46,537 bases of DNA from Candidatus Aenigmatarchaeota archaeon (GTDB lineage Archaea > Aenigmatarchaeota > Aenigmatarchaeia > Aenigmatarchaeales > JACQIB01): positions 1 through 46,537 of the forward strand of contig JBHIDR010000003.1 of NCBI GenBank assembly GCA_046760225.1. The letters run 5' to 3'. Below, piece by piece: positions 39,001 through 42,000 of the stretch (positions are counted from its first letter, which is position 1; each line of letters opens with the position of its first letter). The position numbers are program-made.

Positions 39001-42000
39001 CAGATAAACCCCTGGCCCTGTGAAAGCAGGCCATATCAAAAACATGGTCGCAAGCAAGACAACGAGTGCAATGGCAAAATTGGCAAACGAGCCTGCTGCA
39101 AATATCCTCAGCCTTTTCATGAGCCTTGCCTTTTTCAGCTGCCTTTCATCAGGCTCAACAAACGCGCCCGGGAATATTGCAAGCAGAAGAAGACCCACTG
39201 ACTTCAGCCTTATCTTCTCTGCCCTTGCAATCACGCCATGAGAGAACTCGTGGGGAATGAGTATTAATGCTATAACTATCATCCAGAACCAGAACGGAAT
39301 CAGTATATAACCTGGTCCTATTGCACCTGTTGCAGACGGGGTAGGAAGAATGAGCTGTAAACCTGGCTGGGTTATAAGACCTACGCTTATGAGATAGGCA
39401 GTACTGAGAAGCAGGTGCACACCAACAATCATGAAGATAAGGCATACAACAACTGCAAGGGTATAGATTGCCTTCCATGTGCGCGGTGATAGCTGTGCAG
39501 TCCTGTCGATAAAGTTCCTGAACTTCTTTGTCCTACGCATGACCAGGACGTACTTGAACTCTATGTTCTTCCTGTCCCTGTAAATCAGGATACCTATTAT
39601 TGCAAAGAACAGTACCACTGATATCAGGTAGCCGTCAATCATTCAATCAACCTTCCTTTTTTAGTTAAGACTAACATATATATTTAAATTAAATATAAAA
39701 GTGAGCTTATGGCAGAGGAGATGTTCTGGGCTGACCAGATGGCAAGGAAGGTAATCAAGGAAAGAGGAGAGAAGAGCAAGTATGTGGTAGCTGCAGGTAT
39801 AACACCATCTGGCACAATCCATATAGGAAATTTCAGGGAAATGATAACAGTTGAACTTGTTGCCCGTGCACTAAAGTCTGCAGGCAAGCAAGTAAGGTTC
39901 ATCTATTCCTGGGACAACTATGACAGGATTAGGAAAATTCCTGCAAATGTTCCAAAAAGAGAAGAATTAGAAAAGTATATGGGACAGCCTGTAGTTGATG
40001 TGCCTGATACATTTGGATGCCACAAGAGTTATGCAGAACATATGGAGAAAGATGTAGCAGATGCTCTTCCTGTAGTTGGTATAATGCCTGAGTTCATAAG
40101 TCAGAGCAAGATGTACAGGGACTGCGTTTATGCTGAAGAAATAAAGACATGCATGCTTGCAAAAGAGAAAATCAGGGAGGTACTTAACAAGTTCAGAAAA
40201 GAGCCTTTGCCTGAAACATGGTTCCCTCTTCATATTTACTGTGAAAAATGCAAGAAGGATGAAGGAAGGGTAACAAGCTATGATAATGAATATGCTGTTG
40301 AATATGAGTGTACCTGTGGTCATAAGGGCAAAGTGAACTTCAAGGAAAGGGGAATAGTGAAACTTCCTTGGAGAGTTGACTGGCCAATGAGATGGCACTT
40401 TGAGAAAGTTGATTTTGAGCCGGGTGGAAAAGACCATTCTGCACCAGGTGGTTCATGGGATACAGGATCATTAATAATAAAGGTAGTTTTCAATGAAGAG
40501 CCTCCAGTATACCAGATGTATGACTTTGTAATTCCAAAGGGAGGAGGTGTAAAGTTCTCAAAGTCCCTCGGAAATGTCTTGAAGCTAACAGACGTGCTTG
40601 AAATATATCTGCCTGAAATAATCAGATTCATGTTCGCTGGAACAAAGCCGGTAAAGGAGTTCTCTATACCAATGGATGAGGACATCTTCAAACTTTATGA
40701 AGACTTCTTCAAGGTCGAGAGGATTTATTATGGAAAGGAAGATTCCTCCCGCGCAGCGCACTGGAAAAGGGTGTACGAGATGTCTGTTCCAACAGAACCT
40801 TTAAAGGAAGTGCCTATCCAGCCATCATTCAAGCACTGTGTGGAGCTTATCCATATTTACAGAAAACCAGAAGAAGCAGTCAAAAACATAAAGGAAAAAA
40901 TGGATAAGGAAGGTAGGAAGAGATACCTTGCAATGCTAGTTTGTGCAAAGAACTGGATTGACAAGTACGCACCGGAAGAATACAAATTCACTGTGAACGA
41001 AAAGGTGCCCGATGTCTCCCTCATGGATGCACAGAAATCTGCAGTAAGGGAACTCGGTGCAAGGCTGGAGGAAGCAAAAGACGAAGCTGAGATGGTAAAT
41101 ATCTTCAATGAGCTTACCAAGAAGCATGGTCTTACAACAGGGGAATTCTTCAAGGCATGCTACCTGATTCTCTTGAGCAAGGAAAGGGGGCCTAGATTGG
41201 CACCGTTCATAATGGCAATAGGCAAAGAAAGGGTTGCAAAGCTGTTCAAATCAGTTTAGCGGCCGATTCTCCTGTCCCTGTTCCTGTACCACCTGAGTAT
41301 CTTATTGAACTCCCTCCTACTGAAATCAGGCCAGAGCGTCTTTGTGAAGTATATCTCTGCATAGGCTGCCTGATAAAGCAGGAAGTTGCTCAGCCTGTGC
41401 TCGCCTCCTGTCCTTATTATGAGATCAACCGGCTCGTTCACCAGAAGGAACTTATTAAATGTATCCTCTGCAAGGGGCACGGTCTTGATTCCCTTTGAAA
41501 CAAGCTTTTTGGCTGAGTTGATTATCTCGAACTGGCTTCCGTAAGCAAGAAGTATGTTCAGCACACCCTGAGTATAGTTCCTGGTAGCGTTCATAACATC
41601 CTTGGCAGCCTGCCTCACGTCCTTCCTCCAGAGAGCAGAATTCCCGACTATTTTAATTCTCAGGTCCCGTTTCCTCATTCTCTTGTCTTTCAGAAAGCCC
41701 TTGAACTCCTTGTTATAAATCCCCCAGAGCTTGTCAACCTCTTTCTTGCTCCTATTCAGGTTCTCAGTAGAAAGCGCGTAAACACTGACCACCTTTATGT
41801 TGGGATCGCCTGCGCACCACTCAGCAACATCCTTGAGCTTCTGCACACCCTTTACATGGCCCCACCATACAGGCTTTCTGTGCTTTCGGGCATAACGCCT
41901 GTCTCCGGTTAGTATTCAAACTAAATACCGTCAGGTATTATTGCCAGATGAAGGTTAGCTTTTCTGCCAGTTACGTCATCTGTGATGCCATCACCTCCTG

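Follow-up and report, generated by a model that had tools for sequence, protein, structure and literature searches.

A probable BHB intron in the catalytic motif of an archaeal uppS gene, and its co-occurrence with a neighbouring LAGLIDADG endonuclease gene

The uppS locus

We describe an interruption of the cis-prenyltransferase gene uppS in the window, that is, the whole stretch of DNA that was analysed (46,537 nt). The genome analysed here is designated G000 and its genus mate G001, and the other G numbers denote relatives in the class. The gene is found on the minus strand, directly downstream of a free-standing LAGLIDADG homing-endonuclease gene, and the features of the locus are the following:

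41971 to 42945, minus strand: LAGLIDADG homing-endonuclease gene, free-standing, 324 aa (LAGLIDADG_3, E 2.5e-15)
41992 to 41998, minus strand: Shine-Dalgarno-like GGAGGTG, inside the last codons of the endonuclease gene
41926 to 41986, minus strand: uppS exon 1, 20 codons and the first base of the Asn codon, beginning with ATC at 41986-41984
41903 to 41925, minus strand: putative BHB intron of 23 nt, phase 1 in the Asn codon of Asp-Gly-Asn-Arg-Arg, with stop codons in both exon frames
41256 to 41902, minus strand: uppS exon 2, with the remaining two bases of the Asn codon, 214 further codons and a stop codon

Three-frame translation places a change of the uppS frame at 41925-41903 of the minus strand. 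The frame reading ...HLAIIPDG stops at a TAG (41923-41921), and the frame reading RRYARKH... is open only past a TGA (41918-41916). Since the two open frames do not overlap, a simple ribosomal frameshift is unable to join them, and this explanation was rejected. When the 23 nt are taken out, GGT-A is joined to AC-AGG and Asp-Gly-Asn-Arg-Arg is regained, a cis-prenyltransferase loop that is complete only after this removal. In the three-frame translation, this cut is the only way of joining the two frames.

Excision of exactly 23 nt yields a uppS gene of 235 codons that aligns without gaps with that of the genus mate, which, as an earlier note on this DNA had stated, carries the same gene without the interruption. 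The exon-1 frame reads ...TDDV...HLAIIPDG, in agreement with the N-terminal sequences of relatives without an interruption, the frame that is open from 41915 onwards matches positions 1-219 of the Prenyltransf profile (PF01255, E 2.9e-65), and exon 2 is 72% identical to the genus mate's sequence. We have also applied a homology-only splice caller which, out of 4158 candidate cuts, placed the 23-nt cut alone at the top (score 224 to 294). Both approaches arrive at the intron that the earlier note had placed at 41925-41903, inside Asp-Gly-Asn-Arg-Arg. The number of codons missing from the called gene, on the other hand, is in our count 39 and not 42, which is the difference between the 235 codons and the called GTG-initiated ORF of 196 aa.

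It is important to point out that the exon-1 frame, followed back to the upstream stop, has no ATG, GTG or TTG. The position of the genus mate's ATG is occupied by the ATC at 41986-41984, which lies 5 nt from the end of the GGAGGTG run and 7 nt from its GGAGG core. A non-ATG start near 41986 that overlaps the end of the LAGLIDADG gene had been suggested before, and this ATC fits the description; the last 16 nt of the endonuclease gene overlap exon 1 in a different frame. With no canonical start in the exon-1 frame, this copy of uppS may have just lost its start, or an unusual start may be used.

Comparison of the spliced gene with that of the genus mate over the 235 codons gives a pN of 0.17, a pS of 0.68 and a dN/dS of about 0.11, and the corresponding dN/dS values for the separate exons are about 0.21 for exon 1 and about 0.10 for exon 2. 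As judged from these substitution ratios, both exons are under purifying selection. In the genome, which is 83%-complete, uppS is the sole Prenyltransf gene found.

Structure of the insert

The pre-mRNA around the insert can be arranged into a BHB with the following elements:

41889 to 41945, minus strand: full BHB-forming stretch, with outer helices, central helix, two bulges and inner hairpin
41935-41932 with 41901-41898, minus strand: outer helix, CCUG/CAGG, 4 bp, then 8 further pairs past single mismatches
41931-41928 with 41908-41905, minus strand: central helix, ACGG/CCGG, 3 pairs and one A.G
41927-41925 and 41904-41902, minus strand: bulges UA/U and AG/A, 3 nt each, cut after the second base (slash)
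41924-41920 with 41913-41909, minus strand: inner helix, 5 bp, closing a loop of 6 nt

Because the central helix has three pairs and one A.G instead of the canonical 4 bp, the BHB is of the relaxed form. The description in the earlier note (a central helix of three pairs with one mismatch, bulges of 3 nt, and 4-bp and 5-bp flanking helices) was reproduced in all its parts. Cuts at 41926/41925 and 41903/41902, i.e. after the second base of each bulge, restore both the motif and the reading frame, and only 1.6% of the 4158 candidate cuts, the 23-nt cut among them, conform to the relaxed BHB rule. The stretch 41885-41945 folds with -17.8 kcal/mol (z -3.0), and 2 of 200 shuffled sequences fold equally well. 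The register of lowest energy is slid by one base from the productive one and has a 4-bp CGGU/ACCG helix; canonical cuts in this register would excise 21 nt and lead to nonsense. The ACGG/CCGG central pairing is common to the inserts of G000 and G004. Taken together with the inserts of various lengths found in relatives at the same position, often beside an endonuclease gene (see below), the 23-nt insert is most likely a real spliced intron.

We have also considered the possibility that uppS of G000 is a recently dead gene. The insert would then be homologous to real introns, while the gene would have lost its start (ATG to ATC) and perhaps good splicing, and no enzyme would be made. The exon-1 frame without a canonical start could be taken in this way, as could the relaxed central helix with its A.G and the competing fold register. 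Small-genome symbionts do lose pathways, and our search of the class found no uppS match in 57 of 371 genomes. However, apart from the insert the 235 codons are free of stops and frameshifts, the low dN/dS extends to exon 1, and no other Prenyltransf gene was found in the genome. The Shine-Dalgarno-like run is a good one and ends 5 nt ahead of the ATC, and G004 combines the same A.G central helix with a normal ATG, preceded by an identical GGAGGTG. A dead gene is therefore considered unlikely.

uppS inserts across the class

The survey of uppS covered 346 genomes in six orders, 292 of them with uppS, and all flagged loci were fetched; the 25 class genomes outside these orders were left out. 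It identified 22 inserts of 13-52 nt in the uppS genes of 19 genomes, distributed over several orders of the class. They are located at three sites, all within the first 50 codons of uppS, in a survey that is blind to inserts beyond about residue 50 and to in-frame inserts free of stops:

Site 1: Ile codon AT/A, 5 inserts
Site 2: Asn codon A/AC or A/AT, 13 inserts
Site 3: after Gly-His-x-x-Gly-Ala, 4 inserts

Related genomes enter these counts as non-independent samples. Outside the counts are truncated uppS matches located at contig ends (G115, G139, G061, G153, G275, G287, G306, G315, the G368 pieces and G274:C30), a distant paralog (G016:C49, one TAG) and a fragment (G106:C98, one TAA). Two second-round candidates, in G106 and G265, gave a slight rise in score with no BHB (2/4 central pairs) and were dropped as over-fitting, and the split uppS of G173, a frameshift or deletion without an insert, was not counted.

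In three genomes, two introns are found in one uppS gene. The insert lengths cover all three classes modulo 3, and each spliced product is full length. Among the equally good protein-restoring cuts of each insert, exactly one has BHB geometry, the exception being G210, for which no cut has it and the best shows 2/4 central pairs. Over the 22 inserts, the central pairs number 4/4 in 18, 3/4 in three and 2/4 in one, with a background pass rate of the BHB rule of 0.2-3%.

The pairing has also been conserved through sequence change. For 12 site-2 sequences, 85.7% of the cells are paired, compared with 18-45% when the partner is slid; both sides have changed in 6 of the 12 pairs, and the observed covariation score was reached by none of 500 shuffles. 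In the same sequences, the third position of the Asp codon forms a pair with the intron that is C-G in eight cases, U-A in three and U-G in one. In the uppS tree, intron carriers are sisters to intron-less genes (G000/G001, 99/92; G026/G028, 100/99; G023/G040, 98/92), and at least six gains or losses of introns are required.

These observations bear on two further explanations. One is that the RNA keeps the insert and the ribosome bypasses it by hopping, as in gene 60 of phage T4. A stop codon does occur soon past the Gly codon, and the 13-nt insert of G004 is flanked by GGA codons, such that hopping from one GGA to the other would yield the correct protein. In G000, however, landing at the sole matching site would lose the conserved Asn, and in the site-2 inserts inspected by eye (e.g. 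G118) matching take-off and landing codons are absent. The conserved feature is instead the BHB pairing with its compensatory changes, exactly at the positions cut by EndA, which makes bypassing very improbable.

The other is an artefact of assembly or sequencing. The genome is a metagenome-assembled draft of 83 contigs, and a single-base difference such as ATC/ATG could be an error. No random error of 23 nt, on the other hand, would produce a BHB precisely at the motif-restoring cut, nor would it be seen again, in other lengths and sequences, in 18 further assemblies. The likelihood of an artefact is thus negligible.

Splicing machinery

On contig C2, the genome encodes an alpha-like and a beta-like EndA paralog. 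The protein of 176 aa has Tyr, His and a loop insert (best match 3iey_A, E 4e-35), and that of 163 aa is without the His. According to the alignment, both have Ala at the first Lys of the Arg-Lys-Lys of the 1a79 enzyme, a point that we counted against the splicing reading. Two-subunit EndA enzymes have broad specificity (PMC5829648), and the enzyme predicted here would be able to cleave relaxed motifs. Introns are predicted by ARAGORN in 13 of the 21 tRNAs.

There is one RtcB gene, and it is itself interrupted by a canonical 32-nt BHB insert, which occupies positions 1646-1677 of contig C35 of G000. The genome's ligase gene would hence need splicing, a circumstance that we counted against the splicing reading.

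A genome-wide screen of 552,815 bases for BHB-like joins that fuse open frames gave 737 hits compared with 726 for mirror-image decoys, i.e. no excess, and the screen had no power. It demanded 4/4 central pairs. Under this rule the uppS intron itself is not findable.

The adjacent endonuclease gene

We now turn to the LAGLIDADG gene upstream of uppS, whose connection with the intron is absent from the earlier note and is drawn in the present analysis. Its translation contains two LAGLIDADG-type motifs ending in Asp-Gly (...GYIMGDGH... and ...GLFDADGT...), and G004 has a homologue with 50% identity in the corresponding position. Of the 19 interrupted uppS loci, 11 have a LAGLIDADG-type gene immediately upstream and on the same strand (eight of these genes assigned by Pfam, three by BLASTP to a member with a Pfam match), compared with none of 44 uninterrupted loci (24 + 20), where the native neighbours (PCMT, peptidase M48) abut uppS. 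Three endonuclease subfamilies are represented beside uppS, and they extend beyond single orders, with 42-57% identity across the order boundaries.

The intron could be real and spliced while its LAGLIDADG neighbour has nothing to do with its spread, the border being a favoured landing place or the intron an independent resistance allele of the host. In favour of this reading, eight of the 19 interrupted genes have no adjacent endonuclease gene. LAGLIDADG genes are moreover common, with 10 matches in G000 and a presence in 24 of 41 relatives' genomes. Among the other nine matches in G000, two are inside the 23S rRNA gene and one is beside or within a fragmented 16S gene, and no obviously split gene was seen downstream of the other free-standing ones. 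Nor was an arrival scar found: the three frames of 42900-43260, on the upstream side of the endonuclease gene, contain no second copy of the uppS start.

Against this reading stands the contrast of 11/19 with 0/44 loci. Three subfamilies, in at least five families and three orders, are found at the same border only where the intron is present, and the pattern is patchy among genus mates. In addition, the copy in G065 is split into two ORFs, as would be expected late in a homing cycle. We accordingly regard an unrelated endonuclease as less likely than not.

Proposed origin and mechanism

Our best explanation, which we hold to be quite probable, is that uppS contains a genuine archaeal BHB intron of 23 nt, with its origin read as a cassette of an endonuclease and a protective intron. 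The uppS gene would probably be co-transcribed with the upstream endonuclease gene, and exon and intron bases would pair in the pre-mRNA to form the BHB. The tRNA-splicing endonuclease, composed of the alpha-like and beta-like EndA, would then cleave each 3-nt bulge behind its second base, and RtcB would join the exons to give the mRNA of a full-length cis-prenyltransferase of 235 residues. The cutting and joining steps are here read from the anatomy of the BHB.

At the DNA level, the free-standing endonuclease, inserted just upstream, would cut intron-less uppS alleles in the conserved stretch, and repair of the break would copy the intron together with the endonuclease gene. We propose that the intron breaks the endonuclease target and that the carrier is thereby protected. 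What is observed is a free-standing endonuclease gene adjoining an intron without an ORF, a co-occurrence of the two across genomes, and a patchy distribution among sisters. From this co-occurrence, the best reading of the origin is an archaeal, host-spliced version of the "collaborative homing" of phages.

Relation to known systems

A BHB intron in a pre-mRNA is known from cbf5 of Desulfurococcales and Sulfolobales (Watanabe 2002; Yoshinari 2006; Yokobori 2009, PMC2738675), where it has been linked to a hetero-oligomeric EndA (PMC2738675). The cbf5 and uppS introns are alike in being too short for a nuclease, in being substrates of the tRNA-splicing endonuclease (predicted for uppS), and in having been gained or lost among relatives. 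The published BHB introns of protein-coding genes that we found are all in cbf5 of crenarchaea, and no others are cited by a paper of 2025 that deals with these endonucleases. The uppS case differs in the gene, in the lineage, which we term DPANN-like on the basis of genome size and EndA, in having three sites with up to two introns per gene, and in its location inside a catalytic motif. It differs also in the free-standing LAGLIDADG gene upstream in 11/19 genes, since the descriptions of cbf5 that we consulted mention no such partner.

Collaborative homing has been described for the group I intron in psbA of cyanophage S-PM2 and the adjacent free-standing F-CphI (Zeng, Bonocora and Shub 2009, in PMC6083498), and T4 mobE/I-TevIII is a further case (PMC2790892). 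In psbA, as in uppS, an ORF-less intron in a conserved gene is adjacent to a free-standing homing-endonuclease gene, and a common logic is proposed for both: the target of the endonuclease is split by the intron, the carrier is thereby protected, and the intron is mobilised by the endonuclease. The psbA intron is a self-splicing group I ribozyme of a phage, and cleavage was shown there, whereas the uppS introns are 13-52 nt long, predicted to depend on EndA and RtcB, located in cellular archaea, accompanied by an endonuclease of the LAGLIDADG type, and described here from sequence.

Work by Bonocora in 2011 reportedly connected phage T4 MobA with the 50-nt bypass insert of gene 60. This system, which is treated also in bioRxiv 10.1101/2022.08.31.505936, resembles uppS in that an essential gene contains a short non-coding insert, which is neutralised after transcription and travels with a neighbouring homing-endonuclease gene. 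In T4 gene 60 this is achieved by ribosomal bypassing in a phage, whereas in uppS it would be achieved by RNA splicing in an archaeon.

I-DmoI is an example of a LAGLIDADG endonuclease encoded in a BHB intron of rRNA. Archaeal rRNA BHB introns that encode LAGLIDADG endonucleases (PMC2738675) have the intron type and the endonuclease family in common with uppS, and G000 has LAGLIDADG ORFs in its 23S rRNA gene as well. The difference is that in rRNA the endonuclease gene is inside the intron, whereas at uppS a minimal intron has the endonuclease gene outside it, on the upstream side of the host gene.

Significance

With uppS, a second gene with BHB introns is added to cbf5, in a far-off lineage of small genomes, at three sites and with at most two introns per gene. 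It adds clear compensatory evolution in the RNA helices, and an intron in the catalytic motif of what is apparently the sole copy of the gene. One consequence is practical: since gene callers shorten such genes (196 aa here compared with 235), these genes will be overlooked or wrongly scored when the metabolism of these archaea is reconstructed.

How short ORF-less archaeal introns spread is an old question, and the close association with an adjacent homing-endonuclease gene suggests an answer that can be tested. The same association makes uppS a natural parallel of phage collaborative homing. More generally, endonuclease genes and mini BHB introns may form composite selfish cassettes in archaeal protein-coding genes, in which the intron acts as an immunity device, and this may be a general route for the entry and spread of tRNA-type introns; we judge the chances of this wider proposal to be evenly balanced. 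If the cassette reading is true, uppS would be an example of it with several sites and several introns, in a genome where the gene of the splicing ligase would itself have to be spliced.

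Results and Discussion

The reading frame of the cis-prenyltransferase gene uppS is broken shortly downstream of a LAGLIDADG gene on the same strand:

41971-42945, minus strand: LAGLIDADG open reading frame (Pfam LAGLIDADG_3, E 2.5e-15), followed by uppS
Ending at stop 41256, minus strand: cis-prenyltransferase gene uppS (Pfam Prenyltransf, E 2.9e-65), reading frame broken

The first frame (...TDDV...HLAIIPDG) is terminated by TAG at 41923-41921, while the second is open after TGA 41918-41916 and continues through ...RRYARKH... as far as the stop at 41256. Since the two open stretches do not overlap, a one-step ribosomal frameshift is unable to join them and was ruled out. 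When the 23 nt at 41925-41903 are excised, on the other hand, GGT-A meets AC-AGG and the Asp-Gly-Asn-Arg-Arg loop is regained. This cut was the single choice among 4158 candidates (score rising from 224 to 294) of a splice caller whose sole criterion was protein similarity to the uninterrupted protein of the genus mate, G001; 1.6% of the candidates pass a relaxed rule for motifs of the bulge-helix-bulge (BHB) type and 0.4% the canonical rule. The earlier note had proposed this insert, and also that the genus mate's gene is uninterrupted; both proposals are borne out, the spliced gene aligning gap-free with the latter over 235 codons.

In the productive register, the RNA would form the relaxed BHB that had been described. 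The outer helix consists of CCUG/CAGG and two further 4-bp blocks past single mismatches, the central helix (ACGG/CCGG) has three pairs and one A.G, and the inner helix of 5 bp closes a 6-nt loop. The 3-nt bulges, UAU and AGA, are placed 3' of both strands of the central helix, the arrangement seen in pre-tRNA, with the cuts after the second base. For the surrounding 61-nt stretch the folding energy is −17.8 kcal/mol (z −3.0), which is equalled by 2 of 200 shuffles. It is important to note that the minimum-energy fold is shifted by one base, giving a 4-bp CGGU/ACCG helix, and that canonical cuts in that register would take out 21 nt and result in nonsense.

Without the 23 nt (removed in silico), the comparison with the genus mate gives pN 0.17, pS 0.68 and dN/dS of ca 0.11, with ca 0.21 for exon 1 alone and ca 0.10 for exon 2. 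The gene is the sole Prenyltransf match in this genome, G000 (851 kb, 83% complete).

Concerning the start codon, the exon-1 frame contains no ATG, GTG or TTG as far back as the stop upstream of it. The exact place of the genus mate's ATG is occupied by ATC (41986-41984), and GGAGGTG is located 5 nt before it (7 nt from the GGAGG core), where the endonuclease gene has its final codons; this agrees with the suggested non-ATG start near 41986, behind a Shine-Dalgarno-like run and overlapping the LAGLIDADG gene. An ATG at this position would put a TGA four codons early in the endonuclease frame. Given the lack of a canonical start and the position of the ATC, translation may begin at a near-cognate codon, or the ATC may stem from a very recent mutation or from an erroneous base. 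By eye, an A/T-rich, TATA-like run is seen at 42946-42985, immediately 5' of the ATG of the endonuclease gene; the two genes may therefore be transcribed together, behind a very short leader.

Inserts in related genomes

The class was searched (371 genomes) with the full-length UppS protein of the genus mate, and the counts by order cover 346 of these genomes. In the following, G numbers denote related genomes of the class.

Table. Genomes with uppS in six orders
Order; genomes; with uppS
Own order; 42; 41
Order of G118; 118; 89
Order of G292; 91; 82
Order of G190; 70; 56
Order of G356; 17; 16
Order of G237; 8; 8
Total; 346; 292

All non-truncated matches that start at residue 16 or later, contain an internal stop or are split were inspected, which yielded 22 inserts in 19 genomes, located at three sites.

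Table. Sites and lengths (nt) of uppS inserts (slash, insertion point)
Site 1; Ile codon AT/A, 7 nt upstream of site 2; G023 31, G265 29, G267 30, G268 30, G210 31
Site 2 (that of G000); Asn codon A/AC or A/AT; G000 23, G004 13, G026 21, G292 18, G118 16, G117 20, G106 20, G065 20, G108 19, G046 21, G123 33, G128 33, G135 26
Site 3; after Gly-His-x-x-Gly-Ala; G125 32, G123 29, G128 29, G135 52

The lengths fall into all three classes modulo 3, and the in-frame inserts contain stop codons. All 22 spliced products are full length with conserved motifs, and in 18 of the 19 carrier genomes the interrupted gene is the sole match to the query. If one protein can be obtained by several cuts, BHB geometry singles out exactly one of them per insert, except in G210, where none has it. 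The central helix is fully paired (4/4) in 18 inserts and pairs 3/4 in G000, G004 and G292; G210 has a strong inner hairpin and a weak motif, its best cut pairing 2/4. The splice caller covered the carriers other than G128, and both inserts of G128 are identical to those of G123. Sites 2 and 3, ca 60 nt apart, are both occupied in G123, G128 and G135 (loci L056, L057 and L058); no archaeal protein-coding gene with two BHB introns was found in the literature searched.

Two further observations were made in the survey. The uppS of G173 (L087, G173:C22) is split by a frameshift, with ca 15 residues missing and no inserted segment, and is likely an error or a dead copy, unlike the BHB cases. Many genomes of the order of G292 have a tandem pair of uppS paralogs (e.g. 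G343:C3:1031-2478 and G333:C2:7061-8491).

For the covariation analysis, 12 site-2 sequences were aligned (G128 was omitted as identical to G123). The helices are paired in 85.7% of the cells, compared to 18-45% in controls whose 3' partner had been slid by 1 to 3 columns. Both sides have changed in 6 of the 12 pairs, including all four of the inner helix. The pair between an intron base and the Asp codon's third base is C-G in 8 sequences, U-A in 3 and U-G in 1, with the codon base given first. None of 500 shuffles attained the observed score; this test is inflated by kinship among the sequences, a weakness of which the slid-partner controls are free. MAFFT misaligned the inner helix of G000, an error that works against the structure. 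On the basis of anatomy, selection, recurrence and covariation, we read the uppS insert as most likely spliced.

In a maximum-likelihood UppS tree of 45 rows (without G173, two fragments at contig ends and the 20 controls added later), introns are present in all three clades of the class. Carriers are sister to intron-less genes in G000/G001 (99/92), G026/G028 (100/99) and G023/G040 (98/92). At least six gains or losses are required on this tree, whose sampling is biased because interrupted loci alone were taken from outside the own order.

A search of the main texts of openly accessible papers yielded cbf5 alone as a protein-coding gene with BHB introns, and nothing on uppS introns or DPANN coding introns. 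In the accessible text of a 2025 structural paper, three cbf5 papers are the sole citations for protein-coding introns, and that of a 2026 preprint, which covers 208 Nanobdellota genomes, refers to introns a single time and for tRNA only.

The neighbouring endonuclease gene

An endonuclease gene precedes 11 of the 19 interrupted loci. Eight have LAGLIDADG_3 in the upstream same-strand ORF (G000, G004, G267, G268, G046, G123, G128 and G135), and in G026, G108 and G065 the ORF shares 45-57% identity with its G046 counterpart (E 1e-25 to 1e-92). They form subfamilies A (G000, G004), B (G267, G268, G123, G128, G135) and C (G026, G046, G108, G065), of which B and C span more than one order. The two genes of subfamily A are homologous (50% identity) and both end within the uppS start; tblastn with that of G000 among 30 loci gave no match outside this pair. 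The G065 homologue (L052) consists of two overlapping ORFs (3-452 and 380-721), which suggests a decaying copy.

No LAGLIDADG match was found at 44 uninterrupted loci, namely 24 of the own order for which upstream sequence was available (the scan took in 46 of the 69 listed ORFs, across all loci and longest per locus first) and 20 in the other two orders (with 37 of 52 ORFs covered). At uninterrupted loci the native neighbours PCMT or peptidase M48 abut uppS, as they also do at the interrupted, endonuclease-free loci of G118 and G265. From this co-occurrence and the patchy distribution of the introns, we read endonuclease and intron as a putative cassette. With sites 1 and 2 just 7 nt apart, an insert at either would break one target of ca 20 bp. 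The 8 of 19 introns that lack the endonuclease gene are consistent with a late phase of the homing cycle, and equally with an unrelated origin. An arrival scar, i.e. a duplicated uppS start, was sought in three frames of 42900-43260, upstream of the endonuclease gene, and none was found.

In G267 (L046) and G268 (L047), the endonuclease ORF runs on in frame across the uppS start and all of exon 1 to a stop inside the 30-nt intron. In unspliced RNA this ORF would thus terminate in the intron, while in spliced RNA it would be fused to UppS.

Splicing machinery

Two tRNA-splicing endonuclease (EndA; tRNA_int_endo) genes lie ca 0.5 kb apart on contig 2 of G000 (G000:C2:22790-24355; 238-729 and 1273-1803 of locus L001), with a nitroreductase-like gene between them. 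The best PDB match of the 176-aa protein is 3iey_A (E 4e-35), which we take to be the catalytic subunit of the enzyme from Nanoarchaeum equitans; Tyr and His are kept, and a loop insert is common to both. The 163-aa protein has Lys at the position of the catalytic His of 1a79 and therefore looks like a structural subunit. Aligned to 1a79 and 3iey_A, both paralogs carry Ala in place of the first Lys in the Arg-Lys-Lys stretch. According to PMC5829648, non-canonical introns are cut by two-subunit and epsilon-type EndA only, and a loop insert common in DPANN goes together with heavily disrupted tRNA genes.

ARAGORN called 21 tRNAs in the whole genome and none in the window. Introns are predicted in 13, several being non-canonically placed, with lengths of up to 693 nt; disruption has probably caused many tRNAs to be missed. 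The 23S rRNA gene (G000:C8:16724-22032, L093) is 5309 nt long vs 2987 nt for the model, with LAGLIDADG matches at C8:19388-19822 and 20773-21237, and the match to the 16S gene (G000:C1:43124-46861, L094) is broken into separate pieces, near which there is another LAGLIDADG match. These interruptions are probably classical endonuclease-bearing rRNA introns.

The gene of the ligase RtcB (G000:C35:1330-2837, L092), with an archease gene immediately upstream, has in exon 1 (C35, ca 1530-1560) ten extra in-frame codons, SVNDFCRTLN, between His-x-Gly-Tyr and Gly-x-Pro-Ile-Gly-Gly; inspection by eye revealed no convincing BHB around them. Separately, rtcB is split by a 32-nt insert (1646-1677) that forms a canonical BHB: its UAGG/CCUA central helix is perfect, the bulges are of 3 nt and the inner helix has 7 bp. 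Excision of this insert restores the conserved Gly-Gly-x-Gly-x-Asp-Ile-Asn-Cys-Gly stretch. As the ligase gene itself carries such an insert, mRNA splicing is probably routine in this organism, and the ligase would then rely on its own activity.
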